A program made the position numbers and the translations under genes. Positions 3,957-37,098 of a stretch of DNA of 37,187 bases are shown one piece after another. This DNA comes from Dehalococcoidia bacterium. GTDB lineage: Bacteria; Chloroflexota; Dehalococcoidia; GIF9; UBA5629. The stretch covers positions 1-37,187 of the forward strand of contig QYPU01000111.1 of the NCBI GenBank assembly GCA_007280145.1, read 5' to 3'. The notes below the pieces were generated by a model. The model ran no database searches, was not told the origin of the DNA, and saw only the letters and a program-made list of their open reading frames with translations. Position 1 is the stretch's first letter; each line of letters opens with the position of its first letter.

Positions 3957-3969
3957 TTAGACACCTCCT

Positions 3970-7306: not shown

Positions 7307-7315
7307 ATTATACCA
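7307..7315 (-). promoter_or_regulatory. Candidate extended -10 promoter (TGGTATAAT on the minus strand) for the transporter/kinase/RLP operon
   Basis: The reverse complement of 7307-7315 reads TGGTATAAT, ~95 nt upstream of the GTG start at 7207. No good -35 was found. Confidence 0.35.
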
Positions 7316-9431: not shown

Positions 9432-9743
9432 TTAGCTACCACGCACACGCCCAAACTGCAAAGCCAGCCCTACCGCAGCGACAAGAATACCCAGACCAGC
9501 CATGAGAACATCAAGGGTAAAACCACAAGCGAAATCTCCTATTGTAAAGATAAGCACATAGCCAATGAGAAAGTTGACCATCCCCCAAATAACATTCACT
9601 AGCGGAGATGATTCTCCAACAGCCGGGGGCGAGGCAAAAGGACTTTGAAATCTCTCTCCAGATATGCCATGTACAAAGTGGGGTATACCATTGGCCAGAA
9701 ATAGGCCGGCGATGAAGTAGGCTAGATAACAATACCACGCCAT
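9432..9743 (-). CDS. Small hypothetical membrane protein (about 3 TM helices)
   Basis: 103-aa hydrophobic ORF with plausible helix spacing. No family was recognised. Confidence 0.45.
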   Translation of the reverse strand: MAWYCYLAYFIAGLFLANGIPHFVHGISGERFQSPFASPPAVGESSPLVNVIWGMVNFLIGYVLIFTIGDFACGFTLDVLMAGLGILVAAVGLALQFGRVRGS

Positions 9744-9999
9744 GTGTTGTTCCTCCTTTCTTCCAGCTTACTTGGTTCTGAGCTGATAGAATTGCGCTCA
9801 TGTAAGGTCATCTCTATTTTCTGAATTTACTATCCTGAACCTGCCTCGCCAACAGGGATGAGGCTCTATTCTCAATTTTTTAGAAACATGACAAAGTGAA
9901 CACCTATAGCGAAGGGAATAAAGGCAGCGCTTATCCATCTCAAAGACACTCGCGGCAACATCTGCTCTAACTTTAGCGGTTACTCATCAGAAATGGCAA

Positions 10000-10710
10000 T
10001 TATCCGTCAAGGTCTGCTTGGGTCAATTTGTAGGTATCGATGCTGCCAATATCAAACCATAGCTCACTGAAAGTATAAGCATAGACCTCACCTCTATCTA
10101 TCAAATAAGCAATAAAGCCACCTAGATTGTCCCTTTTGCCTTCGGTGCAATATTGAGAGAGGAGAGGAAATATCCGCTGTGGGAAAATATAGCAGGCAGT
10201 AGCAATAAGGCTGGACTCAGGCTTGGCAGGCTTTTCCTCAAATTTGCCTATTCGGTTCCCATCTAATTTAACAACCCCGAACTGGCTGGCTTTGCTTCTA
10301 TCGCCGATATCATAAACGGCTACCAAGGGGTCTTTACCATTATAAGCAGAGACGAACTGGGGCAAGGCAAACTCGAAGTAGTTGTCACCGGCAATAACCA
10401 GTAAGTCTTCTTTTATGTTTTCGGTCTTTATCCAGTAATCCAAGGAGCCAATAGCACCAAAAATTTGTTCTTCAGTGAAAACCGGCTCGATACATAGAGT
10501 CACCTTTCTGTTTATGGTATTTTGCCAGTGGTGAAAGTCAGCTTCGAATTTCTTATTAATGTTGACAAGGATATCCATATCCTGCGGAATCTTGTCTACA
10601 ATATGGCTTATTAATGCTTTGCCTTTGTACTCAAGGAGGCCTTTTGCCCTGTCAACATTCAATGGATAGAGCCTCGTTCCAAAACCGCTAGCCAGTATCA
10701 GGCTTTTCAT
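10000..10710 (-). CDS. Sugar-phosphate nucleotidyltransferase (NTP_transferase family)
   Basis: 236 aa. The N-terminal signature is LILASGFGTRLYPL (G-x-G-T-R-L). The EKP motif (FEEKPAKPES) is also present. Confidence 0.85.
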   Translation of the reverse strand: MKSLILASGFGTRLYPLNVDRAKGLLEYKGKALISHIVDKIPQDMDILVNINKKFEADFHHWQNTINRKVTLCIEPVFTEEQIFGAIGSLDYWIKTENIKEDLLVIAGDNYFEFALPQFVSAYNGKDPLVAVYDIGDRSKASQFGVVKLDGNRIGKFEEKPAKPESSLIATACYIFPQRIFPLLSQYCTEGKRDNLGGFIAYLIDRGEVYAYTFSELWFDIGSIDTYKLTQADLDG

Positions 10711-10833
10711 CTTATATTAACCAACTTTTCGAAAGGATGATTTTTAATAAAGGCTGCTCCACCAGATTCAAACAGATAAGTAGTAATATCAATGTTCAAG
10801 CTTCATCTGCGAACGCTACCACCTAACTTGGTT

Positions 10834-11982
10834 TCACTCTACGCCTGACGCTTCATTATATAACCGATTCTTCCATCGTATCCCCTTGCCAATTGCCTGT
10901 CGCAAAGCGGCATAAAGAGCAGTTAGAAAGAGGAATGAGAACCCGATCGGATGCAAGAAAACCGAAACACTAGGCTCCTTGAAGTGATTGTCTACTAGCC
11001 AGCGCATAAATATTATCATAGTCACCTGAAAAACAACAACGGGTTGCCAGCTGGCAGGAGCTGCCACTATAAACAGCCCATTCCAGAGCCAGTAGAACGG
11101 GGCCAGAAAGAAAACGTAGCCGGCTATCATCAGCCCAACTAGCGCTGCAGGGGATAATGCAGCCACTGAATACATCCATTTGACAAATCCCTCCCACATC
11201 GCTCCTAAATTTCGATACATATTACATGAAACCACTGGCGATAAGTCAACCGCCACATGCCGACCGCCATATCGATTTACCTCGACCCCCAGCCAGACAT
11301 CTTCCAGTATCCTAGATTCTACTGCCTTGTGTCCGCCAATCCGCCAATATTCACTTCGAGGAAAAAGGAGGAACTGACCGATAGCCAGCGATGGCCTCGG
11401 TTTTTTGGAGTGCTGGAGCCACCACAACGGCAACCAGCTCATGATAACAAAATATAACACCGGCATTGCTACCTTTTGAGCAAAAGAGGTAGCAAGCTGA
11501 CGTGGGAACCCGGAGAGCAAGGAGGCTTTAAACTCAATAGCCAGAGCAAGCACACTGCGCAGCATATGAGAGGCATGTATGGTATCAGCATCGACAAACA
11601 GCAGCCAGGAGCCTCTGGCATTTTGAGCAAGTTGATAGCAGGCAAAGGGCTTACCCGCCCATCCCTCGGGGAGAAGTTCACCCCTTATCAATCGGACACG
11701 GTTATCCACAGCCGCTATCTGGCTTACAATATCAGTCGTGCTATCTGAAGAGTTATCATCTAGCACTAAAATCTCGAAATTTGAGTAATCCTGTTTCTGT
11801 AGGGACTTTAAGCAGGTTTCTATGTTCTCCTCCTCATCCCTCGCCGGAATGAGCACAGAGATAAAAGGAGCTGGCTCAGGTATTTTACTGCCACCATTCG
11901 GTGTCTTGAGCATCCTCAAATTGAAGATGAGATTAAGCGCAAAAACAACCAGACCAACGGCTATTATTATCTGATATAACAT
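10834..11982 (-). CDS. Family 2 glycosyltransferase with membrane-spanning C-terminal half
   Basis: 382 aa. GT2 blocks are VLIPARDEEENI, VLDDNSSDST and FVDADT. There is an N-terminal TM helix and several C-terminal TM helices. Confidence 0.85.
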   Translation of the reverse strand: MLYQIIIAVGLVVFALNLIFNLRMLKTPNGGSKIPEPAPFISVLIPARDEEENIETCLKSLQKQDYSNFEILVLDDNSSDSTTDIVSQIAAVDNRVRLIRGELLPEGWAGKPFACYQLAQNARGSWLLFVDADTIHASHMLRSVLALAIEFKASLLSGFPRQLATSFAQKVAMPVLYFVIMSWLPLWWLQHSKKPRPSLAIGQFLLFPRSEYWRIGGHKAVESRILEDVWLGVEVNRYGGRHVAVDLSPVVSCNMYRNLGAMWEGFVKWMYSVAALSPAALVGLMIAGYVFFLAPFYWLWNGLFIVAAPASWQPVVVFQVTMIIFMRWLVDNHFKEPSVSVFLHPIGFSFLFLTALYAALRQAIGKGIRWKNRLYNEASGVE

Positions 11983-12006
11983 GCTCTTAATTCCGCTATT
12001 GCCAAA

Positions 12007-12639
12007 TTAGATTGGCCGTTTCCTTGTTCGAAGCCAGCTGATTAGTTTTACCTTAAACCTGGGAGCAGTCTGCAGGTCTTTAAGATGTTTTACTATCAAT
12101 ATTGCAAGCACACACAATGTAAAGAGAGATTCCAACGAGCTACCCGTAGTGCTTACCAGGTAAATCAATGAACCTGCTGAGCCAAACATCACCCTCCAGG
12201 CGTCGATTTCCACAAATAGAAAAGCCAAGAACATAAATACCATAAACGCAATTAGCACTTCGTGCTGGGGCAGCGCAAAGAGGACACCAAGAGTAACTGC
12301 TAACGATTTACCGCCTTTCAATCGAAGTATGGGGGAGAAGGCATGTCCCAATATGGCACTTAATCCAACAGCAATAATTGCTGCATCAGGGAGGCCAAAG
12401 AATGAATATGCCAGGACTACAAAAGGTACACCTTTGGCCGTGTCCAGAATCAAAGCGAGGCAGCCCAACTTGCGACTTCCAGCTCGAAAGACATTGATTG
12501 CCCCAGGGTTACCGTCTCCATAATCTCTTATATCTTTGCCCAGTAACCAGTAGCCAATCCATACCGAAAAGGGACAAGCACCTAGACAAAAAGCAGATAC
12601 GCATAGCAATGCAGAGTAAAGCACTTCCACTGCTTCCAT
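12007..12639 (-). CDS. plsY: PlsY-family glycerol-3-phosphate acyltransferase
   Basis: 210 aa, polytopic. PlsY motifs are GDGNPGAINVFR (cf. GSGNxGATNxxR) and HAFSPILRLKGGKSLAVTLG (cf. H.fP.f..fkGGKGVAT). Confidence 0.8.
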   Translation of the reverse strand: MEAVEVLYSALLCVSAFCLGACPFSVWIGYWLLGKDIRDYGDGNPGAINVFRAGSRKLGCLALILDTAKGVPFVVLAYSFFGLPDAAIIAVGLSAILGHAFSPILRLKGGKSLAVTLGVLFALPQHEVLIAFMVFMFLAFLFVEIDAWRVMFGSAGSLIYLVSTTGSSLESLFTLCVLAILIVKHLKDLQTAPRFKVKLISWLRTRKRPI

Positions 12640-12708
12640 ACCCCTAACTCCAATCGTGTATTATGCCTAGTAACACTAGGTATAGAATAAGTTATAGTTT
12701 TTTTGTTG

Positions 12709-12954
12709 TCAAGCCTGCAATCCATCGTTGTTCCTTACGAGAAAGCCCAAACAATATCCAATAGCAATTGAGCCTAAAACTGTGAGCCCAGCCAATATCA
12801 GCACATATTCCCAGCAGAAGTAGGCAATCATGATAGGCAAGAGTGGTAGCTTGATAGCCCTATTGTAAAGGAATACAGAAAGCGGAGAATTTCCAGCTCC
12901 CCTTTCCTTCAGTTCCCTAAGCAGCGGATACCATGCATAGATAGTATGTGCCAC
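12709..12954 (-). CDS. Small membrane protein, possibly a truncated C-terminal piece of a DUF318/ArsP-type permease
   Basis: 81-aa ORF with a GTG start. The segment LKERGAGNSPLSVFLYNRAIKLPLLPIM resembles the end of predicted-permease proteins, but the expected ~250 upstream residues are absent. Confidence 0.3.
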   Translation of the reverse strand: MAHTIYAWYPLLRELKERGAGNSPLSVFLYNRAIKLPLLPIMIAYFCWEYVLILAGLTVLGSIAIGYCLGFLVRNNDGLQA

Positions 12955-13006
12955 TGTGCTATAATTGTGACATCTGCCTATTGTTTAGATTATAGGAGGT
13001 GCTGGA

Positions 13007-13452
13007 ATGTCAGTTCAACTTGATGACGCAAAACTTGCTGCTCCCTGTGGTCTATACTGTGGTGTCTGTCCCGTGTCTATGGCCAGCAGCAACAATGCCC
13101 TCGCCGAAAAACTAGCCCAGACGATGGGGCTCCCCCCGGAGCGAATCAAATGCCTCGGCTGCAAAACAGAAAGGGGCACATAAAAATCATGGGAGAGCCT
13201 GTGTGTCCCACATACCATTGCTGCATAGAGCAAAGGAGCCTACAATTTTGCTACCAGTGCGAGGATTTCCCTTGCCTCAAACTAGCACCCTGCGCTGATA
13301 AAGCCCAGCTACTGCCTCACAACACCAAGGTCTATAACCTCGTACTATTGCAAAAGTTAGGTTTAGAAAAATGGCTGCAAATGGCTCAGCAGTTACGGAG
13401 CCAGTACTTCAGGGGTAAAAAAGAGCGCGGTGGGGACGAGCTCAAAGTCTAG
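13007..13452 (+). pseudogene. DUF3795-type cysteine-rich protein, split by a -1 frame change near 13160-13190
   Basis: An ATG at 13007, after AGGAGG, gives MSVQLDDAKLAAPCGLYCGVCPV...KCLGCKTERGT and stops at 13181 (TAA). The family's remaining motifs (CPTYHCCIEQRSLQFCYQCEDFPCLKL, LLPHNTKVYNL..LGLEKWL) continue in the -1 frame (listed ORF 13150..13452). Confidence 0.6.
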
Positions 13453-19406: not shown

Positions 19407-19431
19407 TAATAATTGTTACCAAAAGTGGTAT
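19407..19431. repeat. Left copy of island-flanking direct repeat (candidate attL core)
   Basis: TAATAATTGTTACCAAAAGTGGTAT. It contains the small palindrome TACCA-AAAG-TGGTA and matches 37074-37098 with one mismatch. Confidence 0.7.
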
Positions 19432-19496
19432 CTTGAAGTCTATGTGGGGCAGCACTGGATGTATGTTACCATCTGCCAAGCTCAGGGCGTCGGGCA

Positions 19497-19860
19497 CGGA
19501 AATACCTGTCGCTCATAGCAGCAGCGGGCATGTCAACCACCGAAGTTCGTCGGCTTTTGACGTAAAGCGCCAAGCAGAGGAGACCTCCACACCCACCAAG
19601 CCACCGTCGCAGCCAGATTCAACTGCCGCTTATCATCGTAAGGCCAGCGTGACTCCTACGCTGTATCTCATGCCCCATGGCGCCGACCCACCAGCCCGAC
19701 AGGTCAACGGCAACCCTACCTCGCAAGCCGATGCACCTCTTGATATCTGCCAAACACAGGAGGTTGGCGAAAGCCACCTAGCGAGCCGAGGTACTGCCAG
19801 ACATCGCCCAAAGTCTGGCAATGACTTAAGTACCGCCGACCATAGTAAAGTAGCGCCGGC
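19497..19860 (+). pseudogene. Decayed tyrosine-recombinase catalytic-domain remnant (several frame changes and stops)
   Basis: Integrase-like pieces are scattered over three plus-strand frames. KYLSLIAAAGMSTTEVRRLL resembles box I (tGLR.sEl..L). RRSQIQLPL resembles KQRSVPISP. KHRRLAKAT resembles HQLRHYFAT. GNDLSTADHSKV resembles GHAHASTTADIYWHV of the intact neighbour. The match is weak and by eye. Confidence 0.35.
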
Positions 19861-19901
19861 AGCATCACTCCCGTGTGACCTCCACGCTAGGCAGGTGAAG
19901 C

Positions 19902-20315
19902 ATGAACCCTGAAGTATTTGAAGTCTTCAATGGGCTATCCCCATCCCACCAGCGCCTCATACGAGAGTTCATCTCTGCCCTTGCCGAGTCCGAGGGCGTT
20001 ACCATCCCAGACGATCACGAGCCCGTCCCCTCCACATACCAAACTTATATCAACCCCTGGTGCCACCACCTGATCGACACTGGATGCTGCCCCGACACCA
20101 TAAGGCGCTATTCCCTTATCGTCTCCAGTTTCCTCGACGTCTATCCTAACCCCACCTCCTCAGACATTCACGCAGCACTGGCACACCTCTCAGCCCTGGG
20201 CCAAAACCCAGACACTATCGCCACAACACTTAACGCACTCACGAACTTCTTTGCATATCTGGCAAGCCAGCACATCATCCCCTCCAACATCGCCGAACCC
20301 GAGGATGACATATGA
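19902..20315 (+). CDS. Integrase N-terminal (SAM-like/core-binding) domain-only protein, a truncated paralogue of the downstream integrase
   Basis: 137 aa. LSPSHQRLIREFISAL..., INPWCHHL and TIRRYSLIVSSFLDVYPNPTSSDI parallel LTPANHRLVRELVFKL..., VNPWLERL and TIRAYTRQILQLLKRYPSPTQADI of ORF 20395..21366. No catalytic domain follows. Confidence 0.6.
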   Translation: MNPEVFEVFNGLSPSHQRLIREFISALAESEGVTIPDDHEPVPSTYQTYINPWCHHLIDTGCCPDTIRRYSLIVSSFLDVYPNPTSSDIHAALAHLSALGQNPDTIATTLNALTNFFAYLASQHIIPSNIAEPEDDI

Positions 20316-20394: not shown

Positions 20395-21366
20395 ATGACA
20401 TCAGATCTTGCAGGGCATATCGACAAGCTAACGCCTGCAAACCACAGGCTAGTCCGGGAACTCGTCTTCAAGCTATTGCAACTTCAGAAGGCCGCCAACC
20501 CTGAAGCCTACGACGAGGGACTCGAAGTGTCCCAATTTGTTAACCCTTGGCTAGAGCGCCTTCTCCAGGAAGGCAAAAGCCCATGGACCATCAGGGCCTA
20601 CACACGCCAGATCCTCCAGTTGCTCAAGCGGTATCCCAGTCCCACCCAGGCCGACATCACAAACTACGTGACAAGCCTTATTTATGAAGGAAAGCAACCC
20701 GCCAACACCAACGCTTTTATCTGGGCGGCCAAGAGCTTCTTCACCTTTTGCTCTGAGCACGGACACCTAGCAGCCAATCCCGCAGCTCGTATCAAGCCCA
20801 GGCCTCTCCCAAAAAGGGAAACCAAATCCCCACCTCCTGAGGACGTCCATAGACTGCTCTCACTGCCATCACTGACGCCACGCGATACAGCCATGCTCCA
20901 CCTGTTTATAGACTGCGGCTTGAGGCTCGATGAGCTTCTCAGCCTTGAAGTCAACGACCTCGACCTTGCCCACATGAAGGTAACTGTCATCGGCAAGGGG
21001 AACAAGCAACGCTCCGTCCCTATCTCGCCTGCCACCAGGGACGTGTGCCAGGCTTACCTGCGCCACGTTGCAGCCACCAGACTCCTGTTTCCCGGTAAGA
21101 AGCCTGGCCGCAAGATGACACAGACGGCAATTCACCTGTTGTTAAAGCACCTCTGCCGACAGGCAGGCATACAAACCATCACAGCGCACCAGCTCAGACA
21201 CTACTTCGCCACACAGGCATTGTCCAAGGGTGCTAGCCTCAAAGCCGTGTCCAGAATGCTAGGGCACGCTCACGCCTCTACAACGGCAGATATCTACTGG
21301 CACGTCATCGATGAGCAGGAAATCATCGACCAGCATACCAGGTATAGCCCGATCGCAAGTCTATAG
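20395..21366 (+). CDS. Tyrosine-type site-specific recombinase/integrase (XerC/D-like)
   Basis: 323 aa. The catalytic signature is complete: box I CGLRLDELLSL, GKGNKQRSVPI, HQLRHYFAT (H-x-x-R), and LGHAHASTTADIYWHV (H...Y). Confidence 0.9.
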   Translation: MTSDLAGHIDKLTPANHRLVRELVFKLLQLQKAANPEAYDEGLEVSQFVNPWLERLLQEGKSPWTIRAYTRQILQLLKRYPSPTQADITNYVTSLIYEGKQPANTNAFIWAAKSFFTFCSEHGHLAANPAARIKPRPLPKRETKSPPPEDVHRLLSLPSLTPRDTAMLHLFIDCGLRLDELLSLEVNDLDLAHMKVTVIGKGNKQRSVPISPATRDVCQAYLRHVAATRLLFPGKKPGRKMTQTAIHLLLKHLCRQAGIQTITAHQLRHYFATQALSKGASLKAVSRMLGHAHASTTADIYWHVIDEQEIIDQHTRYSPIASL

Positions 21367-22062: not shown

Positions 22063-22824
22063 ATGGCACAAGAAACTTGGCATCAATCGGCTATGGTAGA
22101 GAAATGTGAAACCAGTATTAATGGGCAAACCATCATATATACAGTCAAGCGAAGCCTTAGGGCAAAGCATGTCCGTCTCGAGGTGAGACGACAAACGGGG
22201 CTTACGGTAGTTGTTCCTCATTCTTACAAGATTGGGCAACTCCCTAGACTTTTACAATCGAAAGAACGATGGATCTCAAGTCACCTGGCAAGATGTAGCC
22301 ATTTCCAATCGCTTTCTGCCGAGAAGGAACTCAGCAGTGGCGATACTGTCCCATATCTTGGCCAAGACTTGGAGCTGGTCAAGCAGGAAAACCACAGAGG
22401 GGTTGGCAGTGTAACGCTAGACGGGAATACTCTGGCAGTGAGCCCCGGATTATTCAAGAACGGTATTTTGGAGTTGGCTTTGGAACAGTGGTATCGGACA
22501 GCGGCTGCCAAACTGATAAACGAGAGAGCAGATGAATTGAGCTCTCAGATGGGCATTAACTATAAACGAATTGTCATACGAGGTCAAAAGACCCGTTGGG
22601 GCAGCTGCTCCCATAAGAAAAATCTTAGCTTTAACTGGAAACTAATAATGGCGCCGGAGCCCGTGATCGACTATGTCATCATCCACGAGCTTACCCATCT
22701 GAAAGAGATGAATCATTCAAAGAGGTTCTGGGAACTGGTAGCTCAATACTGTCCCAGATGGCGAGAGTATAAGAAGTGGCTCAAGCAACATGAGGCAGAC
22801 CTTACTGCCAAACTCTGCGCCTAG
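22063..22824 (+). CDS. DUF45 / YgjP-like M48-family zinc metallohydrolase
   Basis: 253 aa. The N-terminal pattern is YTVKRSLRAKHVRLEV...GLTVVVP. The C-terminal zinc motif is IIHELTHLKEMNHSKRFW (HExxH ... H), preceded by RWGSCS. Confidence 0.85.
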   Translation: MAQETWHQSAMVEKCETSINGQTIIYTVKRSLRAKHVRLEVRRQTGLTVVVPHSYKIGQLPRLLQSKERWISSHLARCSHFQSLSAEKELSSGDTVPYLGQDLELVKQENHRGVGSVTLDGNTLAVSPGLFKNGILELALEQWYRTAAAKLINERADELSSQMGINYKRIVIRGQKTRWGSCSHKKNLSFNWKLIMAPEPVIDYVIIHELTHLKEMNHSKRFWELVAQYCPRWREYKKWLKQHEADLTAKLCA

Positions 22825-23686: not shown

Positions 23687-23906
23687 TCCCGCCTCCTTAT
23701 CCAGAGTTTTTGGTAGAAAAGCCCTTCAACTCTATAATCGCTCATTTATCTGTCAATAACCACCATCTTTTACCCACCCGGTAATGGCAATAAGGTTGTA
23801 TCATTTCTAGTTCATGGTGTCAACACTCCCTCTCTTCGGTATGGAGAGAGTCTCTCACGGTAGCTGGTGCCCTCAATGACGATCTGGTAGCAGCCGATTT
23901 CAGTCG

Positions 23907-23988
23907 TTGCCTTTGAGAGTACCATTAACTATAATGGGAGCTACAATATTCGTGTGGATTTGACAAGGGGCAGTGCATTTGAAGTAAT
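23907..23988 (+). promoter_or_regulatory. Candidate promoters for the SNF2-led operon
   Basis: Candidate one is TTGCCT (23907-23912), a 17-nt spacer and TATAAT (23930-23935). Candidate two is TTGACA (23960-23965), a 17-nt spacer and AGTAAT (23983-23988). Both lie within 140 nt of the ATG at 24043. Confidence 0.3.
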
Positions 23989-24042
23989 GCTTCTGCTGTC
24001 TCGGAACAAGGCACCGGTAATTCAGAAAACGGGATCTGAAGA

Positions 24043-26916
24043 ATGAGTACCGCTTACCATGCTCGGTATTTCGCGCATGAACTCACTCGGCGAGGTGGAA
24101 TCGGCGTTGAGCGTTTGTCCAGATCCCTTTTTGATGCCTGTGTTGATTTGAATCCCCACCAAATTGACGCAGCCCTTTTCGCCGTACGGTCTCCACTTTC
24201 CAAAGGCGTTCTCCTAGCTGACGAAGTCGGGTTGGGCAAGACAATCGAGGCAGGTCTCGTCCTCTGCCAATTCTGGGCAGAGCAACGGCGCCGACTCCTA
24301 GTGGTCTGTCCAGCATTGATCCGCAAACAATGGTCACTGGAGTTGGAGGAGAAATTCAGCCTCCCCACCAAGATTATTGACGCAAAATCGTACAGGGAGG
24401 CACAGACAAACGGTATTCCTAATCCCTTTGAGTTCGAGGCCATTATTCTTACCTCAATGCACTTTGCCAGCCGCTATGCCGAGGATGTAATCGCTATCCA
24501 ATGGGATTTGGTTGTTATTGACGAAGCTCACAAACTGCGCAATGCTTATCGACAAAGCAACCGCATGGGGCAGAACATCCGCTGGGCACTGGAAGATAAG
24601 CGAAAGATATTGCTCACTGCTACACCTCTTCAGAATTCCTTGCAAGAGCTCTATGGCCTTTCCACCATCATCGATGATCGCATTTTTGGTGACCTGCCAT
24701 CGTTCCGTACTCAATACATTAGTGCCGGGGCAGATCTAGTTGAACTTCGTGAACGGTTGCAGTCATTTTGCGTGAGGACTCTACGTCGCCAAGTTGTTGA
24801 GTATATCCAGTATACCGAGCGAAGGTTGATTACACGTCCTTTTCAGGCCAGTGAGCGGGAGCACAAGCTCTATGAAGCGATATCCGGTTTCCTCCAGCGT
24901 GACGATACGTATTCAGTGCCGCAGCAGCAAAGACATTTGACTACCCTGATAGTCCGTAAATTGCTGGCATCCTCTTCCCAGGCGGTCGCTGGGACACTTG
25001 AGACCATGAGAGGTCGCTTGGTTGCTATACGCGACGGGCTCTCTGTGGACAGTGATTTCGTTGAGAATATTATCGCCGATGAGGAGATTGAAGACGAAAT
25101 CCTTGATGAAATACTAGATGGCGAAGCCGAACATGATGAAGAGGAATCGAGGGACCAACATTCAATCACTGTAGATCGGCAGAAATTGAACGCCGAGATC
25201 AAGGAACTAGAGACCTACATCCATTGGGCACGGAGCATTGGGATTGATACCAAGACTCGTGCTCTGCTCAAGGCTTTGGAAATAGGTTTTAGCAGTATGA
25301 CTGAGATGGGAGCAGCACAAAAGGCAGTGGTTTTTACTGAATCACGACGTACCCAGCAGTATTTGAAGGACTTCTTGGAAGCTAATGGCTATGCCGGGCG
25401 CGTTATCACATTCAACGGCACAAATACAGATGAAGGCTCTACTCGTATATATGAGCAATGGGTATTGAGAAACAAGGAAGCAGGACGCGTTACTGGTTCA
25501 AGGGCAGTTGATATCCGTACTGCCATTATTGAGGACTTCCGAGATAATGGTAGCATCATGATTGCTACTGAGGCTGCTGCTGAAGGGATTAATCTCCAGT
25601 TTTGCTCGTTAGTCATGAACTTCGATCTGCCTTGGAACCCCCAACGTATCGAACAGCGCATCGGACGTTGCCATAGATACGGCCAGCAACACGATGTAGT
25701 GGTTATCAATTTTCTGAATGAAAGAAATGAAGCTGATCGTCGCGTCTATGAGCTACTGAACGAGAAATTCAACCTTTTCAGCGGTGTTTTTGGGGCATCG
25801 GACGAAGTGCTGGGAAACATCGACTCGGGGGTGGATTTTGAGTGGCGTATTCTCGACATTTACCAACAATGCCGTACAACCGAGGAAATTGAGGAAGCTT
25901 TTCACCAGCTCCGAGCAGAGCTTGATAAAAGGATTCAAGCAAAGCTTGAAGATACACGTCGTATTCTACTGGAGCACTTCGATGAGGATGTACACCAAAG
26001 ATTGCGCGTCAATCTGGAAGGAACACGGGAACAGCTTGACCGCATCGGCAGGATGTTTTGGACTCTGACAAGGTTCATTCTTGGAGGCCGAGCTGACTTC
26101 GACGATGATTCACTGGTCTTCGACCTTCTCAAGTCACCTGTGAAAAGCGTGCGGGAAGGAAGATATCACCTGGTTTCTAAGAAGCAGCCATCCATGACTG
26201 GCGAATTCCTGTATCGTATCTCCCATCCCCTCGGCGAGCATGTGGTGCAATCTGGTAAGGAATATCCATCACCAGTCGCCATGGTTGCTTTCGATATTAC
26301 CAACCACTCCAGTAAGATTGCTCTGATTGAGAGATTGAAGGGCCTCTCTGGCTGGCTTGTCCTACAACGACTGGTCATTGAATCATTCGAAACTGAGGAG
26401 TACTTACTCTTCTCCGGTTTTGATGATGGCGGACGGCCGCTAGACCAGGAAACTTGTGAGAAGCTATTTCACTGTCAGGGCACGGCGAGCCCTGAAGGAG
26501 AGCCACCACCCCAAGTTACACAACGACTTGACCACGAAGCTGAGCGCCATGCCAAAGCTACTATCAGCAGGTCTTTGGAGCGGAATAATCATCATTTCAA
26601 CGAAGCGCGAGAGCGGCTGGAGAAGTGGGCGGATGACATGGTGCTTGCTGCAGAGAAGCAATTGAAGGATACCAAGCAGCAGATTAAGACACTTACCCGT
26701 GAGGCAAGGCTTGCCACTCTAGTGGAAGAACAGCACCAGCTTCAGGAGAAGATTCGGGATATGGAGAAAAAGAAACGCCGCCAACGGCAACGCATTTTTG
26801 ACCTGGAGGATGAGATAATGGAAAAACGTGATAAACTGATTGAGGCCTTGGAGAGAAGAATGGCACAGAAGACTTCGAGGGAAGCCCTTTTTGCTATCCG
26901 CTGGCAAGTTATTTAG
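24043..26916 (+). CDS. SNF2-family (Swi2/Snf2) ATPase/helicase with long C-terminal coiled-coil region
   Basis: 957 aa. Motif I is LLADEVGLGKTIEAG, motif II VVIDEAHKLRN, motif III LLLTATPLQNSLQELY. Motifs V/VI are TEAAAEGINLQFCSLVMNFDLPWNPQRIEQRIGRCHRYGQ. An acidic linker (EEIEDEILDEILDGEAEHDEEE) sits between the lobes. The C-terminus is K/R/E-rich heptad-like (EKIRDMEKKKRRQRQRIFDLEDEI). Confidence 0.92.
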   Translation: MSTAYHARYFAHELTRRGGIGVERLSRSLFDACVDLNPHQIDAALFAVRSPLSKGVLLADEVGLGKTIEAGLVLCQFWAEQRRRLLVVCPALIRKQWSLELEEKFSLPTKIIDAKSYREAQTNGIPNPFEFEAIILTSMHFASRYAEDVIAIQWDLVVIDEAHKLRNAYRQSNRMGQNIRWALEDKRKILLTATPLQNSLQELYGLSTIIDDRIFGDLPSFRTQYISAGADLVELRERLQSFCVRTLRRQVVEYIQYTERRLITRPFQASEREHKLYEAISGFLQRDDTYSVPQQQRHLTTLIVRKLLASSSQAVAGTLETMRGRLVAIRDGLSVDSDFVENIIADEEIEDEILDEILDGEAEHDEEESRDQHSITVDRQKLNAEIKELETYIHWARSIGIDTKTRALLKALEIGFSSMTEMGAAQKAVVFTESRRTQQYLKDFLEANGYAGRVITFNGTNTDEGSTRIYEQWVLRNKEAGRVTGSRAVDIRTAIIEDFRDNGSIMIATEAAAEGINLQFCSLVMNFDLPWNPQRIEQRIGRCHRYGQQHDVVVINFLNERNEADRRVYELLNEKFNLFSGVFGASDEVLGNIDSGVDFEWRILDIYQQCRTTEEIEEAFHQLRAELDKRIQAKLEDTRRILLEHFDEDVHQRLRVNLEGTREQLDRIGRMFWTLTRFILGGRADFDDDSLVFDLLKSPVKSVREGRYHLVSKKQPSMTGEFLYRISHPLGEHVVQSGKEYPSPVAMVAFDITNHSSKIALIERLKGLSGWLVLQRLVIESFETEEYLLFSGFDDGGRPLDQETCEKLFHCQGTASPEGEPPPQVTQRLDHEAERHAKATISRSLERNNHHFNEARERLEKWADDMVLAAEKQLKDTKQQIKTLTREARLATLVEEQHQLQEKIRDMEKKKRRQRQRIFDLEDEIMEKRDKLIEALERRMAQKTSREALFAIRWQVI

Positions 26917-26929
26917 GAGGAGATTTATC

Positions 26930-28779
26930 ATGGATGAGAAGACCACCTTTACGAGTGACAAGGAACCATTATTCGAGGTATTGAAGGAAATCGCCGATGG
27001 AAGGATTCAATTGCCTGAATTCCAAAGAAGCTTTATCTGGGATGATGAACATATTCGTAGCCTGTTAGCTAGTATTTCCCTGTCCTATCCCATGGGCGCG
27101 ATAATGATGCTTGAGAATGGAAATTCAGATGTTCGTTTCAAGCCAAGACCAATAGAAGGCGTAGAACTCGCTAAAGAAATGGATCCAGAGAGGTATATAC
27201 TGGATGGGCAGCAGAGATTGACCGCGCTTTTTCAGTCTTTGTTTCTAGACAAGCCGGCAGTAACACAAGATAGCCGCAAGAAGGTTATCAAGAGATGGTA
27301 CTATATTGATATGGCTGCTGCCTTGAATCCACAGGCGGACCGGGAGTCAGCTATTATCGGACTTCCAGAAGACCGAAAGATCACAGATTTCCGAACAAAG
27401 GAAACGAAGGATTATTCCACCTCTGAGAAAGAGTTCCAACATCTACTGTTCCCATTTAATCAAGTCTTCGATCCATCTGATTGGAGAATGAAATATAACG
27501 AATATTGGCAGCACGAGAGAGACAAAATCAAATTTTACGATACATTTGAGAAGACAGTTATTGAGAGTTTCAAACAATATCCAGTCCCAGTGATCAAGTT
27601 ACTTAAAAAAACCCCAAAGGCAGCCGTTTGTCAGGTATTTGAGAAAGTTAATACGGGTGGTGTTATTCTAAACGTGTTTCAGCTTCTTACAGCTACCTTC
27701 GCTGCAGATGGATTCAATCTGCGTGAGGACTGGGATGGCAAGTGCGATTCTCTCGGGAGAAAAACTGAAGAGGGACGCATCGATACTTTGAAGAAGCATA
27801 GGGTTCTTAGATCCGTAGCCGACACAAGTTTCCTACAGGTTATAACACTTCTGACTACTTATGCACGAAAACAGGAGAAACCAGATGCACCTATTAGCTG
27901 CAAAAAGGATGATATATTGAATCTGAAACTTGAAGATTACCGAAAATGGGTTGAGCCGGCAATGGATGGCTTTGACAAGGCAGCCAAGTTTCTTGTTCAA
28001 CAAACAATTTTCTCTGACAGGGACATCCCTTACAGTACGCAGCTGGTACCTCTCGCTACTTTGTTTGCCATTCTGCGAGAAAAAGCCAACAATGATGCGG
28101 TGAGGGAAAAGCTTATCCAATGGTACTGGTGCGGGGTCTTCGGTGAGCTGTATGGCGGCGCGATAGAATCCCGTTTCGCCAATGACCTGCAGCAAGTTCT
28201 GAGCTGGATTGATGGTGGCGAAGAACCGAATACGGTGGTCGAATGCAATTTTGCCCCCACTCGCCTCCATACTCTTAAGACTCGTCTCAGTGCTGCATAC
28301 AAAGGTCTTTACGCTATTCTTATGCGTGACGGCGGACTTGACTTTCTCTCGGGTGTCCCCATCAACGTTCAGACGTATTTTGGTGCGAGGATTGATATTC
28401 ATCATATCTTCCCAAAGGATTACTGTAAGAAGCTGGGTAGTGGAGCTCACGACTATGACTCAATTATCAACAAGGCGCCTATTTCAGGGGATACAAATAG
28501 AATCATTGGTGGCAATGCTCCAAAAATCTACCTTAGAAAGCTTATTGATAAGGGAACTAAGGAGGATCGCCTGGATACTATTCTGGCTTCACATGTAATC
28601 GATGCTACTGCACTCAAAGAGAATGATTATGAGACGTTCTTCAAACTAAGACGAGAAGCTCTTCTTCAGCGTATCGAGAACGCTACCGGAAAGAAGATTG
28701 CCCGAGAGACGGCTGAGACTATAGCTCAGGAGCTGAAGGAGGAAGTCTATCTTGAAGCTGAAGAGGAGGAAAATGTGGA

Positions 28780-28783
<4 letters not shown>
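26930..28783 (+). CDS. DUF262 (ParB/Srx-like NTPase) plus DUF1524 (His-Me finger) protein, GmrSD/SspE-like nuclease
   Basis: The N-terminal domain has QLPEFQRSFIWDDEHIRSLLASI and DGQQRLTAL. The C-terminal domain has IDIHHIFPKDYC and INKAPISGDTN. The start was set at ATG 26930, 10 nt after AGGAGG (26915-26920), and not at the listed 26840, which overlaps the SNF2 gene. Confidence 0.9.
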
Positions 28784-31735
<2,952 letters not shown>

Positions 31736-31755
<20 letters not shown>

Positions 31756-34700
31756 GGAGGCAGTCATAGCAAGAGCAACAATCCCTGGCCGCCAACCGAG
31801 GCGAGCCGAAAGACCTCTCAAGTTTGAGCAAAAGCTGGTGCTTAATCAGTGGATGCTGAGCCTGTTTGAGGTCTCCAGCTTTGACCAGCTTGCCGAAGGC
31901 ATGAAGACACCCGATCTGGAGGGCTTTGACGAGGATAACATCAGTCGGTTCTACCATTTCCTGAGGGCACGATTGTTCGACCGGGCAGAGCTGCCGTTCG
32001 AGGTGCTTTTGAATTACGACCAGAACATCGTCCGACACTGGAAGGCGATAACGGAAAGGCGTAACAAGAATGATGGACGCACCCACCACCCGAAATACTT
32101 TCAATACCTTTCGCTACTGTTTACAGAGATATATTTAGACCGGTACCTTCGCGATCATCAGAAGTTACTTGCGGACTTAAACGCACAAGTCGATATCTTC
32201 AACGCTGACAAGCCCGAGCGAGACCGGGTAAATCGGTACGAGCTGGAAGACCTGAACAAACTTGCCTTCTGGAGCGCCACGGGGTCAGGCAAAACCCTGC
32301 TCATGCACATAAATATCCTCCAATACAGACACTATCTTGACCTGCACAGGCAAGGCCAGCGCATGAACCGGATCATCCTCCTCACTCCCAATGAAGGACT
32401 ATCCCATCAGCACCTTGGAGAGTTTTCTCTTTCCACTATGGATGCGGAGCTATTCTCTCCTGATGGTCGAGGTCTCTTTGCCGGGCTGGCCGTCGAGATT
32501 ATTGATATCCACAAGCTCCGTGAGCAGTCTGGAGAAAAGACAGTTGCCATTGATGCCTTTGAGGGCAATAACCTGGTGCTTGTTGACGAGGGCCATCGTG
32601 GTACCAGTGGTGCCGAAATAGGCCACTGGATGAAGATGCGCACTCAACTATGCGAGAAAGGCTTCTCCTTCGAGTACTCGGCTACATTTGGCCAGGCAAT
32701 TAAGGCTAGTGGCAACAAGGCGCTTGAGCAGGAGTACGCCAAATGCATTTTGCTTGACTACTCCTACAAATTCTTCTATGGCGATGGCTATGGAAAAGAA
32801 TACCGTATTCTGAACCTCGAAGATGATACTGACGAAGCAATTCGGCACCGCTATCTAACTGCCTGCCTGTTAGCCTTCTATCAGCAACAAAAGCTCTATT
32901 CTGACAGAAGGGCAGACTTCCAGCAGTACCTACTGGAGATGCCTCTCTGGATTTTCGTCGGTAGCAGCGTCAATGCTGTCCGCACCGAAAACCGCCGGAA
33001 AGTATCGGATGTGGTGGATATCCTCCTTTTCCTGGCGGACTTCTTGAATAACCGTCCGGAGAGTGTTGCTCACCTTAACCGGTTCCTCACTGGGCAGTCT
33101 GGTCTGCTTGATGCGAAGGGCAATGACCTCTTTACTGGGGCGTTTTCCTACCTGGTTAAACAGCGCCTTAGTGGGGAACAGACTTATGAGGACATCCTGC
33201 GTGTGCTTTTCAATGCCTCATCACCAGCAGCTCTTCATGTTGAAAACCTGAAAGGTACTGAAGGGGAAATCGCCCTGCGCCTTGGTGGTAACGATGCTTT
33301 CGGTTTGATCAACGTTGGAGATGCTTCAGCACTATGCAAGCTCTGTGAGGAGCAGAATGAACTCGTAGTTAGTGACAGGGAATTCTCCGGGTCGCTGTTC
33401 CGAACGCTCAGTGATGCTGAATCACCGATAAATATCCTGATCGGCTCAAAGAAGTTTACCGAGGGCTGGAATAGCTGGCGCGTGAGCACCATGGGCCTGA
33501 TGAATGTCGGTAGAACAGAAGGCTCTATGATTATTCAACTCTTCGGCCGCGGCGTTCGCTTGAAGGGTCTGGATTTCTGTCTGAAGCGCAGTCGGCGGAT
33601 ACTCGGGAGCACGGCTCCACCTGACATCGAACGGCTTGAGACTCTCAACGTTTTCGGCATTCGCGCCGACTACATGCGTCAGTTTAAGGAGTACCTTGAA
33701 GATGAAGGCTTACCCTCCAACGAAGACCGTATCGAGTTTGTTCTACCAGTGGTTAAGGATATCGGGACAAAGAAACTAAAGACAGTCCGGCTGAAGGAAG
33801 GAATTGACTTTAAGCAGCAGGGTCCCAAGCCCACCCTCGAAATGTCCGATGAGTTCCTAAAGAAGAATAAGGTTGTCCTCGATTGGTACCCCAGGATTCA
33901 GGCGATGGCCAGTGCCCGCGGACAAGCGCCACTGGAGATCGCAGAGAGAAGCGAGGGGCAACTTACGAGCAAACATCTTGCCTTCATGAACATGGAAGAG
34001 GTCTACTTCGAACTGCAACGGTTTAAGAATGAACGGGCTTGGTATAATCTCAGTCTATCCAGGGCACAAATCGAGCAGTTATTGAGCCAGTCCATATGGT
34101 ATCAGCTATTCATTCCCAGGGATGAGTTGGAGTTTAATTCCTTCGAGCAGGTGCGCCATTGGCAGGAGATTGCGGTCATACTGCTAAAGAAGTATTGCGA
34201 CCGCTACTATAAGTTCCGTAAAGCTGAATTCGAAAACGAGCACCTGGAGTACCGCGAGCTGAGGGAAGATGATCCAAACTTCATCGATGAATATCTGTTT
34301 CTGGTGGAGCAATCACGAGAGGAGATCGTTACCAAACTAGAGGAAATCAAACAGCTTATCCAGGAGGGCAAGCTGAAATCTGTCGAGTTCCAGGGCTTGA
34401 AAGCTATCATGTTTGACCGTCACCTTTATCAACCGCTCATCTATGTAAAGAGCGACCTGGTTGAAGTAAAGCCGGTGGTTTTGGAGAACGAGGGCGAGAG
34501 GGACTTCGTCCTGCACCTGCAAGATTTCTGCTCACAGAACGCAGGCTTCTTTGAGAACAAAGAACTATACCTTTTGCGGAATATGAGCCGTGGTCGAGGG
34601 ATTGGGTTCTTTGAGGCTGGCAATTTCCACCCCGACTTCATCCTTTGGCTTCTTGTAAGTGGGCGACAGTACGTCAACTTCGTCGATCCAAAGGGGCTAA

Positions 34701-34945
34701 GGAACATTGACGGCATAAACGACCCGAAAATTCGCTTCTACACAACGATAAAGGAACTGGAGCAGAGATTGGGTGATCCCAGTGTGACGTTGAACTCATT
34801 CATTATCTCAACTACTCGGCTGCAAGAGGTATCCTGGTGGAGCGATGGCATGACAAAGGAACAATTCGAACAGCACCACGTCCTCTTCCAACGAGAAGAT
34901 AAGGACACATACATACAGAAGTTGCTATCAGAGGCACAGAGGTGA
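31736..34945 (+). CDS. Res-like superfamily-2 helicase with C-terminal PD-(D/E)xK nuclease motif (type III restriction subunit-like)
   Basis: 1069 aa as listed. Walker A is SATGSGKTLLM, motif II LVDEGHRG, motif III YSATFG, motif VI QLFGRGVRL. The C-terminal motif is HPDFILWL...(13 aa)...FVDPKG (PD...DxK). The start is uncertain: TTG 31736 overlaps Mod by 20 nt, and other in-frame options are ATA 31766, GTG 31838 and ATG 31853. Confidence 0.88.
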
Positions 34946-34950
34946 GCACT

Positions 34951-35490
34951 ATGGAAATAGTCAGAGATAGATTGGAAATCACCGATTTAGTGGCGCGATT
35001 CAGGAACAATCTTCTTTCCAAACTTGAACAAGAAATTCATGAGTCTGTTGGATTCCATGGCGGTGGAATCGACGCGGTGATAAGACAATCAGCTAACATC
35101 GGAATGTGGCTGGCTTACAGTGATGCCGAGGATAAGCAACACGATAGATACTGGACTGCTTTTGGGCTATATAAGGCTAACAACTTGGACATGTCAATCG
35201 TCACTGAAATCAATTTCGCTGCGGAGGGGGTCAACCGCCGTCTTGGAGGTGCCTTCTTCAGAAGTACAGACGGCGCCACTTTGGTGGTGCATAGAGGCAA
35301 CATTGGCGGAGGTCGCCTCGGTATTGGCAAGAGTCTATTCTGGAATAACTTCAAAGGGAAAAGCCTAGTGGCATTTGATGGAACCAGGCAGGGTAATTTT
35401 GCAGTTGTTGGAGAACTTGATTCGGCGGATCTGGTTTACCAAGTAAAGAACTTCGTTGCTGAGGTCGCACGAATCAAGAGCCTTGTGTAG
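34951..35490 (+). CDS. Hypothetical ~180-aa protein, last gene of the operon (no family recognised)
   Basis: The ORF abuts the Res-like stop (TGA 34943-34945). ATG 34951 lies 8 nt after AGAGG, and an alternative GTG at 34942 overlaps the stop (GTGA). The protein looks soluble, with a Gly-rich block HRGNIGGGRLGIGKSLF. Confidence 0.6.
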   Translation: MEIVRDRLEITDLVARFRNNLLSKLEQEIHESVGFHGGGIDAVIRQSANIGMWLAYSDAEDKQHDRYWTAFGLYKANNLDMSIVTEINFAAEGVNRRLGGAFFRSTDGATLVVHRGNIGGGRLGIGKSLFWNNFKGKSLVAFDGTRQGNFAVVGELDSADLVYQVKNFVAEVARIKSLV

Positions 35491-35628: not shown

Positions 35629-36465
35629 CTAGTCGGTTTGCCAAGGGAAATACCGTTCGCGAACATAAGCTATGTAGTCTCTGTCTGCGGTGGGAAGTCT
35701 ACCAACGACCTCAAGAAGCTCTTGATACGTCATGTCTCTGAAATTCACCTCGTCTCCAACATGTTCTCTGAAGTCCATAATCTCGCTTCGATTTCTCTCC
35801 GCCTCTGCCGAAGGAACCTCGTACCACAGGTAGAGCAGCTCAAATCCCCTGGACCCGAATTCAGTGGCCAGTCCCAAAATGTGTTTCAGCAGCTGGGGAG
35901 CATCCAGGTAAACAAAACTCGTCTTCCCATGCTCTTCTTCATGGATACGTCTCGCCAGTTCTTCACATCTGGGGAGCTGCGCCCATAGGTCTGGTACGCC
36001 AAGATACTTGTCTTTGATTGTTCGTTTGGTGTGGCCATGATACGGCTCGGTGAATTTCGACTCTATTGCTACTGGTTTTACGTCATTCCCCCGGAACTCC
36101 ACATCAAGATGGGGCGGAATTCCGCCAAGCGGAGTGGGATGAGTCTGCTCGAAGTGCATGTCTGTCACTCCTTGAGGCGCCCCACAAGCCGAAGCAATGT
36201 GACCAATGTTGGCGGTCCGCCAATACTGAAAGACGTTGAGCGCGAGGGCCGAGGATGAATGCAGGGCCTGCATTTTCCCTCTCTTGTCGCCACTCCCCAG
36301 TTCATCCCCCTTCCCAGACTGAAACTGCTTTTCGACTTCCGGCAGAAGTGGAAGGAACAGGTTGTCATTGAGGGAAAGCGTGTAACCGTCCTGGTCAAAC
36401 CTGATTCCCCGTTGGCGTGCCCAGGCCTGTTGCTGATCGCAGATTAATCTGTACGTCATAGTCAT
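35629..36465 (-). CDS. Hypothetical protein with PD-(D/E)xK nuclease-like motif, convergent to the operon
   Basis: 278 aa. A strong GGAGGGAGGGA RBS lies upstream of ATG 36465. The candidate catalytic core is HLDVEFRGNDVKPVAIESKFTE (D ... E-x-K). This assignment is by motif only. Confidence 0.55.
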   Translation of the reverse strand: MTMTYRLICDQQQAWARQRGIRFDQDGYTLSLNDNLFLPLLPEVEKQFQSGKGDELGSGDKRGKMQALHSSSALALNVFQYWRTANIGHIASACGAPQGVTDMHFEQTHPTPLGGIPPHLDVEFRGNDVKPVAIESKFTEPYHGHTKRTIKDKYLGVPDLWAQLPRCEELARRIHEEEHGKTSFVYLDAPQLLKHILGLATEFGSRGFELLYLWYEVPSAEAERNRSEIMDFREHVGDEVNFRDMTYQELLEVVGRLPTADRDYIAYVRERYFPWQTD

Positions 36466-37073: not shown

Positions 37074-37098
37074 TAATAATTGTTACCGAAAGTGGTAT
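37074..37098. repeat. Right copy of island-flanking direct repeat (candidate attR core)
   Basis: TAATAATTGTTACCGAAAGTGGTAT. It matches 19407-19431 at 24 of 25 positions, and weaker similarity continues for ~9 nt. Confidence 0.7.

Follow-up and report, generated by a model that had tools for sequence, protein, structure and literature searches.

Two genes, mod and res, suffice for type III restriction-modification (R-M), in which a pair of inversely oriented unmethylated sites is required for cleavage and methylation affects one strand only. In type I R-M, PrrC is an accessory gene nested between the hsd genes, and BrxU, a DUF262/DUF1524 type IV enzyme, lies within the pEFER BREX locus; in other contexts, GmrSD and BrxU-type DUF262 enzymes work alone. 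SNF2-type ATPases are found in further systems that contain a methyltransferase (MTase). DISARM class 1 contains DrmD, and PADLOC calls DISARM I only if all five Drm genes (DrmD, DrmMI, DrmA, DrmB and DrmC) are there (PMC9252829). ARMADA comprises the SNF2 protein ArmA, ArmB, ArmC and the UvrD protein ArmD; ARMADA II was shown to require ArmA (PMC13463889), ArmB is a PglX-like MTase and ArmC is a YprA-family DExH helicase with DUF1998 (10.1101/2025.09.15.676423). BrxHII resembles RapA and has alpha+beta and coiled-coil domains at its C-terminus. RapA-like helicases are also present in the BREX-related ('BR') systems centred on DUF499, and in BREX type 3 and the BR systems the BrxHII helicase goes with a PglZ phosphatase, a BrxC or DUF499 ATPase and a BrxXI/PglX MTase (PMC12839542). 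Then, how does a locus compare in which an SNF2 gene, a type III-like Mod-Res pair and a DUF262 gene are packed together? Here, we analyse such a locus in the window, that is, the whole 37,187-bp contig of a Dehalococcoidia metagenome-assembled genome (GenBank proteins TRZ93026 to TRZ93036). Its positions 24043-35490 are filled by genes for an SNF2 ATPase (SNF2), a DUF262 protein (DUF262), a long methylase (Mod), a helicase-nuclease (Res) and an uncharacterised protein of 179 amino acids (aa), termed p179. The initial annotation had taken the five as a candidate composite defence system of fixed stoichiometry. We instead read the locus as a type III-like R-M trio, SNF2-Mod-Res, with a dedicated SNF2 partner, accompanied on an island by two accessory cargo genes, and assign this reading a probability of roughly 0.7.

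The five open reading frames (ORFs) are all on the plus strand, and the source contig's own gene calls (L082) concur (Table 1). A GAGGAG lies inside the 13-nucleotide (nt) spacer between SNF2 and DUF262, the stop of DUF262 and the start of Mod overlap as ATGA (28780-28783), and p179 follows Res after a 5-nt spacer, with an AGAGG Shine-Dalgarno sequence within the 3' end of Res. The junction of Mod with Res has two options: with the TTG at 31736 as its start, Res overlaps Mod by 20 nt, and with the GTG at 31838 it follows after 82 nt. An earlier Res start, such as the TTG, is favoured because the conserved PLKFEQKL is encoded upstream of the GTG. ORF calls and junction reading thus agree with the tight, co-oriented packing that had first been described. 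The domains were searched with Pfam, PADLOC models, NCBIfam and PHROGs, and structures were compared by Foldseek with PDB and BFVD. The domains named in the initial annotation were recovered as SNF2-rel_dom plus Helicase_C, GmrSD_N, N6_N4_Mtase and ResIII, with none for the last gene. NCBIfam has no name for Mod, Res, DUF262 or p179, and the names from the Prokaryotic Genome Annotation Pipeline (PGAP) and GenBank are generic, such as 'SNF2-related protein', 'DNA methyltransferase' and 'DEAD/DEAH box helicase family protein'.

The family was sampled through Res, the most distinctive of the genes, which matches one PADLOC model only. An alignment-driven scan, with one genome per species, gave at least 560 reference genomes or loci with a Res relative, of which the best 80 were examined; every window protein was compared with these 80 loci by tblastn and the coordinates were parsed. 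Among them, 54 loci are informative, in that their Mod is complete and the sequence upstream of it exceeds 3.2 kb, and 43 trio loci are left after de-duplication. The Res homologues are 66-88% identical across many phyla, and the SNF2, Mod and Res families have at least 8,000 candidate protein matches each. In 45 of the 54 informative loci (about 83%), Mod is immediately preceded by a full-length SNF2 (47-75% identical). This adjacency spans more than 10 phyla, the gene order is fixed and the spacers are short, with apparent median gaps in compact loci of 43.5 nt (SNF2/Mod) and 21.5 nt (Mod/Res). The pairwise identity matrices of 27 loci are correlated for SNF2 and Res (r = 0.79), Res and Mod (r = 0.81) and SNF2 and Mod (r = 0.54), each with a Mantel p of 0.001. 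Therefore, the three genes travel and diverge together, and the conserved partnership of SNF2 with Mod/Res, which had been put forward for all the genes of the locus, is confirmed for this one.

An ordinary type III R-M system, an independent SNF2 and an independent type IV enzyme could also have come to lie side by side by chance or permissively, sharing transcription only. Such a juxtaposition would fit with the general clustering of defence genes in islands, with the stand-alone action of the DUF262 enzyme family in other contexts, and with those Mod-Res pairs that persist without SNF2. However, it does not account well for an SNF2 gene kept in the same place in most of the loci of so many phyla, nor for its significant co-divergence with both Res and Mod. 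In addition, SNF2 is 60-77% conserved over its full length, the non-catalytic C-terminus included. We therefore regard this explanation as unlikely.

The co-occurrence comparison, which SNF2 passes, fails for the other two genes that had been proposed as conserved partners. Apart from the close relatives L081, L085 and L086, DUF262 occupies the SNF2/Mod slot in one of the 43 trio loci (L011, 65% identity), and distant DUF262 genes are found between Mod and Res in L009 and L054. In the converse test, 80 metagenome loci with relatives of the window DUF262 protein (43-84% identity) were considered. The gene lies between SNF2 and Mod in L085 and L086 only, and after Res in L111, and 77 of the 80 loci are without the trio; other restriction systems adjoin there (Table 1). 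The DUF262 protein matches GmrSD_N (PF03235), an N-terminal ParB-like NTPase domain, at 3.3e-30, with 106 bits against a cut-off of 33, and its DGQQR motif (D92-G-Q-Q-R96) is invariant among homologues. Its C-terminal DIHHIFP...N...N motif (H491-H492-x-x-P495...N514...N523) is invariant in five homologues, two of them at 22-23% identity, so that the GmrSD/SspE-like His-Me finger of the initial annotation holds at the motif level. Pfam DUF1524 (PF07510) is not reported for the protein at E <= 0.01. The best PADLOC matches are the candidate families PDC-M55C and HEC-05, and SspE is matched weakly (E ~1e-3).

The trio junctions are variable in their cargo. Inserts of 0.4-2.6 kb are present at the SNF2/Mod junction in 13 of the 43 trio loci and at the Mod/Res junction in 19, that is, at either junction in 22 and at both in 10. 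By Pfam, the insert families include AAA_21+DUF4276, Fic/DOC, GmrSD_N, AIPR, RhuM, DUF3800 and YhcG/DUF1016 nuclease, as well as Schlafen/AlbA_2 with HATPase_c_4, HTH plus peptidase M78, 23S-rRNA-IVP and a large SMC-like ATPase, and a given family may occupy either slot. In view of such diverse inserts, the DUF262 gene of the window exemplifies something general and does not define the system as a subunit would. Most frequent among the cargo is a module of two genes, an AAA_21 ATPase and a DUF4276 protein, which is always in the Mod/Res slot. On plasmid pHsw1 of Hymenobacter swuensis, 5.5 kb of cargo fill the SNF2/Mod slot and encode an AAA-family ATPase of 1,210 aa, a hypothetical protein of 433 aa and one small ORF. 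Downstream of Res, this plasmid has genes for an AAA-domain protein of 1,673 aa, for a primase-polymerase and for a further helicase.

The last gene, p179, has no annotation from Pfam, NCBIfam, PADLOC or PHROGs. Its family comprises 1,252 representative clusters at E <= 0.001 and bears the signature RYWNAFG...EINFP..GINRRIAG...HRGKIGGGRxGIGK (window 34951-35490; homologues P0361-P0510). Three forms occur: the stand-alone protein, the N-terminal half of proteins of about 330 aa, and the N-terminus of McrB-type AAA_5 GTPases. The C-terminal half of the ~330-aa proteins carries an invariant D...EVK...Q PD-(D/E)xK motif, and MrcB_N, EVE, PUA-like or DUF7662 domains stand alongside in the McrB-type fusions. 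The Pfam scan of the window gave no McrB/AAA_5 or McrC gene. The AlphaFold model of p179 is confident (predicted local distance difference test, pLDDT, 93.6; predicted template modelling score, pTM, 0.90), and Foldseek returned no structural neighbour in PDB or BFVD. Judging from the domain context, p179 is most likely a reader or sensor module for DNA or modified bases. When the collected loci (2.2 Mb) were searched with a hidden Markov model of the family, ORF by ORF, no counterpart was detected in other loci, and no other locus has p179 downstream of Res.

Consequently, the five genes could hardly form one obligate composite system of fixed stoichiometry with DUF262 and p179 as integral subunits. 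Every junction of the operon is tightly coupled, it is true, the SNF2-DUF262-Mod-Res block recurs in L081, L085, L086 and L011, and the DUF262 protein of L011 is about as diverged as the core proteins, all of which would be expected of such a system. However, DUF262 is rare in its slot, related genes stand elsewhere in L009, L054 and L111, nearly all loci with DUF262 relatives are without the trio, and p179 is missing even from L085, whose Res is 87% identical. Many unrelated genes fill the same slots, too. The obligate five-gene system, including the fixed stoichiometry claimed at first, is thus very improbable.

As for the core proteins, SNF2 has conserved GLGKT, DEAH and QRIGRCHRYGQ (motif VI) sequences, and its C-terminal coiled-coil region is conserved too. 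Its closest solved relative in PDB is RapA, and its best named family is DrmD (675 bits in PADLOC), with a secondary match to BrxHII (228 bits). Against the NCBIfam models, it reaches 684 bits for DrmD_b (NF038318; cut-off 950), where only the core is matched (22-648 of 868), and 284 bits for NF038317 (cut-off 610). By these scores, the protein is a relative of DrmD and not an equivalog.

Mod has an invariant DPPY (479-482; motif IV) upstream of an invariant D736-F-x-G-S-G-T (FxGxG; motif I). Its sequence matches the Mod of 6k0w (3.4e-49) and EcoP15I Mod (2e-37), and the Mods of H. pylori (HpyAXVII-type) and Mbo45V are matched in sequence and fold as well; its fold matches 4zcf by Foldseek (5.6e-23), and the PADLOC model MTase_III (PDLC03646) scores 823 bits. 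Residues 531-715 are hypervariable, with a majority fraction of 0.48 versus 0.7-0.8 in the flanks, which fits a target-recognition domain (TRD) under diversifying pressure. Mod is long, as pointed out in the initial annotation, and has an N-terminal extension of about 440 aa. The length is not peculiar to the locus, however; the extension is the best-conserved part of Mod within a very large Mod family. It has no Pfam or PDB assignment, and the full-length fold search gave matches to the MTase domain only. Some Mods of the family (P0132, P0136, which is the Mod of L008, and P0173; 1101-1173 aa) carry additional DUF559/Vsr-like or GIY-YIG endonuclease domains, as if the methylase had gained nuclease domains by insertion or fusion.

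Res scores 800 bits with the PADLOC model REase_III (PDLC03654) and matches Pfam ResIII and SWI2_SNF2. Over 18 sequences, its helicase motifs I, II, III and VI are invariant (GSGKT 183-187, DEGH 284-287, QLFGRGVR 601-608), and so is the C-terminal nuclease motif PD967...D984-P-K986, in agreement with the PD-(D/E)xK motifs that had been read from the sequence.

The system is horizontally mobile, as is evident from L081, from conjugative plasmids and from the island with its putative attachment (att) sites described below. In L081 (SNF2 97%, Mod 94%), the same four-gene SNF2-DUF262-Mod-Res block has another genomic context, so the block moves as a unit. Among plasmids, pEC316_2 and one more of E. 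coli, as well as many of Klebsiella, have the complete trio. The pEC316_2 trio is flanked by IS26, IS30 and ISKpn8, and an 81-aa helix-turn-helix (HTH) regulator, possibly a controller protein, precedes it; regulator, SNF2 (WP_078174833.1), MTase (WP_004197497.1) and helicase-nuclease (WP_004197500.1) are encoded at 29496-39248 of NZ_CP018955.1. The 9.75-kb block of this plasmid occurs in 2 of 5,426 complete E. coli genomes and in many Klebsiella plasmids. A nucleotide search with the 11.4-kb operon of the window gave no match in E. coli genomes, and only one 162-nt MTase match in plasmids.

These properties also bear on whether the trio serves defence in the first place. It could be an epigenetic or transcription-linked module, with an orphan-like methylase and with Res as a repair or regulatory helicase, in keeping with RapA as the closest solved relative of SNF2 and with the absence of an assigned function for the Mod extension. 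However, the invariant PD-(D/E)xK motif of Res, the hypervariable TRD, the patchy, horizontally transferred distribution on islands and plasmids, and the bona fide defence or toxin modules at the junctions all speak against a non-defence role, for which we see only a marginal chance.

Several observations do weigh against the reading as a trio with cargo. The sample consists of the 80 best-match loci and is not a full census. Five of the 54 informative loci are Mod-Res pairs without SNF2 within 10 kb, with unrelated genes upstream of Mod, and four others (L003, L016, L018 and L019) keep SNF2 remnants only. Therefore, the Mod-Res pair can persist without SNF2, which is accordingly not needed to avoid self-toxicity and may be dispensable for basic R-M function. 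DUF262 is coupled seamlessly, by translation, to the adjoining genes, and its divergence in L011 (65%) is about that of the core genes (52-70%), so there may be a functional dependence on DUF262 in this sub-lineage. The 18-sequence Res profile finds neither EcoP15I Res nor another PDB relative at E <= 10, and the Res ATPase weakly matches HsdR and SWI2_SNF2 (PF18766). The N-terminal region of the Mod model is of moderate confidence only. As a separate observation, the first ~400-430 aa of Mod form an ORF of their own in the four loci with SNF2 remnants (Table 1), which reflects either a functional split of this module or early decay of the system after the loss of SNF2.

For the trio with cargo genes, the following mechanism could be proposed. 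Mod would mark the host DNA by adenine methylation at a short sequence motif, and Res, associated with Mod, would communicate along the DNA at the expense of ATP and then cut incoming DNA that is unmethylated. The communication might be either type III-like sliding or type I/ISP-like translocation, since Res is so far diverged from EcoP15I Res, a further point on the adverse side. SNF2, as a dedicated third subunit or co-factor, would be a double-stranded DNA translocase or remodeller needed for efficient restriction but not for methylation, a role suggested by analogy with ArmA, DrmD and BrxHII in MTase-containing systems, and it may dock on the conserved N-terminal extension of Mod, a proposed contact of Mod residues 1-440 with SNF2 residues 650-957. 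Foreign defence genes can settle at the SNF2/Mod and Mod/Res junctions and have done so repeatedly. In this locus, the nested DUF262 type IV enzyme would attack phages whose modified bases escape Mod/Res, and the place after Res would be taken by a stand-alone reader-like domain, p179. We propose that DUF262 and p179 are functionally independent of the core.

More tentatively, and with clearly lower odds than the reading itself, the trio might represent a distinct, widespread and unnamed three-component class in which SNF2 is mechanistically required for restriction, probably docking on the N-terminal module of Mod, the junctions act as docking slots that recruit second-line defence modules, and p179, one of these modules, is a new reader or sensor domain of McrB-linked type IV enzymes. 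It might then also be an evolutionary and mechanistic bridge from type III R-M to the SNF2-containing DISARM, ARMADA and BREX-3. If SNF2 is a working part, a very common trio is now scored as ordinary type III R-M plus an orphan helicase. It would then be a minimal model for the role of RapA-like SNF2 ATPases in DISARM, BREX-3 and ARMADA, a long-standing question, and the copies on E. coli and Klebsiella plasmids make it experimentally accessible. Where clinical plasmids carry the trio, it may influence the host range of plasmids and phages. The cargo slots show defence stacking inside one operon and could, through guilt by association, be a source of new defence genes, and p179 is an abundant domain tied to McrB-type enzymes, with a confident predicted fold that has no match in PDB or BFVD.

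The operon is carried by an integrase-borne island of about 17.7 kb, bracketed by a 25-nt direct repeat (24/25 identical copies) that has two matches only in the window and none in 100 shuffles. Together with the integrase gene, this repeat agrees with the integrase-bounded island that had been suggested at the outset, and the suggested reading of a defence operon on that island is supported as well. An empty integration site was sought and none was found; L170 is the same sequence and ends inside the island. Two 23-nt repeats, D2 and D3, which are 83% identical only and lie inside coding sequence, were taken as chance. The promoter and terminator scans of the locus gave no more than shuffled sequence did, and this includes the count of sigma-70-like consensus matches, two of which lie upstream of SNF2 (Table 1).

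Table 1. Coordinates of the operon, of the island features and of related loci. Window positions are those of the 37,187-bp contig; other positions are locus coordinates.
Feature	Locus	Coordinates	Strand	Remarks
SNF2 (core gene 1)	window	24043-26916	+	957 aa; PF00176, PF00271; RapA/DrmD-like SWI2/SNF2 ATPase
DUF262 (cargo gene)	window	26930-28783	+	617 aa; PF03235; GmrSD/BrxU-like type IV enzyme
Mod (core gene 2)	window	28780-31755	+	991 aa; PF01555; long type III Mod
Res (core gene 3)	window	31736 (TTG) or 31838 (GTG) to 34945	+	1035-1069 aa; SF2 ATPase + PD-(D/E)xK
p179 (cargo gene)	window	34951-35490	+	179 aa; stand-alone domain, uncharacterised family
Putative operon promoter region	window	23687-24042	+	intergenic, upstream of SNF2; two sigma-70-like consensus matches (23710-23738 and 23907-23935)
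Left direct-repeat copy, putative attL	window	19407-19431	+	TAATAATTGTTACCAAAAGTGGTAT; between EF-G gene and integrase-side genes
Right direct-repeat copy, putative attR	window	37074-37098	+	one mismatch
Two short ORFs	window	19433-20315		159 aa and 137 aa (the latter 19902-20315); between putative attL and integrase
Tyrosine recombinase, island integrase	window	20395-21366	+	PF00589 at 3.5e-32, PF02899
YgjP-like metallopeptidase, island passenger	window	22063-22824	+	PF01863 at 1.4e-62
REase-ARP-type PD-(D/E)xK nuclease, island passenger	window	35629-36465	-	PF22558 at 1e-16; convergent with operon
RuBisCO large-subunit-like protein and sugar kinase	window	2649-5511	-	435 aa (RuBisCO-like); FGGY-family kinase
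SNF2-MTase-helicase trio	L167 (E. coli pEC316_2, NZ_CP018955.1)	3548-13300		IncF conjugative plasmid
SNF2/Mod cargo	L168 (Hymenobacter swuensis pHsw1)	798-6111		5.5 kb
AAA_21+DUF4276	L021, L026, L027, L028	~7.9-10.0 kb		four distinct Planctomycetota and other genomes
Separate Mod N-terminal ORF	L003	5183-6406
Separate Mod N-terminal ORF	L016	6882-8162
Separate Mod N-terminal ORF	L018	6932-8224
Separate Mod N-terminal ORF	L019	7011-8291
Neighbours of DUF262 relative	L141			type III Res-DUF262-Mod
Neighbours of DUF262 relative	L159			type I HsdR
Neighbours of DUF262 relative	L098			Eco57I-like type IIG
Neighbours of DUF262 relative	L162, L164			PLD-helicase-DUF3427 proteins

The longer of the two short ORFs that precede the integrase has 159 aa; the other, of 137 aa, has a phage-integrase SAM-like N-terminal domain only and may stem from a second recombinase that was disrupted, or else be an accessory directionality factor. 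The YgjP-like metallopeptidase has no homologue across the 80 related loci, and the REase-ARP-type nuclease gene has neither a PADLOC match nor a counterpart in the related loci. The latter gene was considered as the counterpart of the nuclease half in the p179 fusion proteins and was rejected, as there is no similarity. The other unannotated ORFs of the island have no match in PADLOC or PHROGs. The window left of 19.3 kb is housekeeping metabolism throughout, and includes a RuBisCO large-subunit-like protein beside an FGGY-family sugar kinase. The former is probably a RuBisCO-like protein that acts in sugar metabolism or salvage instead of in carbon fixation.

No model set used here names the whole cluster, as the initial annotation had anticipated, and the literature searches turned up no account of a trio made of SNF2 and a type III Mod/Res pair, although REBASE curators or subscription-only papers may have one. 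DrmA, DUF1998 (DrmB) and PLD (DrmC) were absent by Pfam/PADLOC from the scanned window ORFs, that is, nearly all non-nested ORFs of at least 100 aa, a 210-aa ORF at 12007-12639 being left out; the absence of the DISARM-defining genes stated earlier is thereby upheld, and the locus is not DISARM since they are missing. The same Pfam/PADLOC scans gave none of the BREX-3/BR components PglZ, BrxC and DUF499 in the window. That the locus is a degenerate or variant member of DISARM class 1, ARMADA or BREX type 3 is therefore the least probable explanation of all: DrmD and BrxHII are indeed the best named relatives of SNF2, and the combination of an SNF2 with an adenine MTase and a helicase-nuclease recalls DISARM-1 and ARMADA (PMC9142583, PMC13463889), but SNF2 falls under both NCBIfam DrmD cut-offs, no DUF1998/YprA, PLD, PglZ, BrxC or DUF499 gene is among the scanned ORFs, the MTase is a beta-class type III Mod versus the PglX-like ArmB (10.1101/2025.09.15.676423), and a PADLOC DISARM I call needs all five Drm genes (PMC9252829). 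Prokaryotic MORC systems were also compared with the locus, and membership was rejected.

In comparison with DISARM class 1, the locus shares a DrmD-like SNF2 gene in first place, an adenine MTase gene after it and the defence-island context. However, the MTase is a type III Mod instead of DrmMI, and the effector is a Res-type helicase-nuclease. With ARMADA, BREX type 3 and BR systems, it has in common that one operon unites an SNF2 ATPase of the RapA kind with an adenine MTase and a large helicase or nuclease effector; it differs from ARMADA in having no YprA/DUF1998 or UvrD, from BREX type 3 and BR systems in having no PglZ, BrxC or DUF499, and from all of these in a Mod that is beta-class (PF01555) and not PglX/BrxXI-like. 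BrxU, GmrSD and SspE resemble the second gene in the DUF262 DGQQR motif, in the signature of a C-terminal His-Me finger and, further, in being nested inside a methylation-based system, whereas the second gene is only distantly related to SspE and its Pfam DUF1524 domain is below threshold. The genes nested in type I R-M operons offer another parallel, since foreign defence or toxin genes are likewise placed inside an R-M operon and share its transcription, and the repertoire here is similar (Fic, RhuM, AIPR, 23S-IVP, AAA_21, DUF262). The difference is that the host is a type III-like trio with two defined junctions, occupied in about half of the sampled loci.

The closest likeness, then, is to type III R-M systems such as EcoP15I, EcoP1I, Mbo45V and those of H. 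pylori. It consists of the order Mod then Res, of a Mod whose sequence and fold are homologous to EcoP15I Mod and which is an N6-adenine MTase of the beta class, with DPPY and a central TRD, and of a Res composed of an N-terminal SF2 ATPase and a C-terminal PD-(D/E)xK nuclease. The type III-like core that had been recognised initially is therefore upheld by the homology of Mod and by the architecture of Mod and Res, but not by homology of Res to the archetype, as Res has no detectable similarity to EcoP15I Res beyond the generic helicase domain. Other differences are the conserved N-terminal extension of Mod and the junctions that act as cargo slots. An SNF2 gene precedes Mod in most loci here, and this third conserved gene departs from the two-gene definition of type III R-M.

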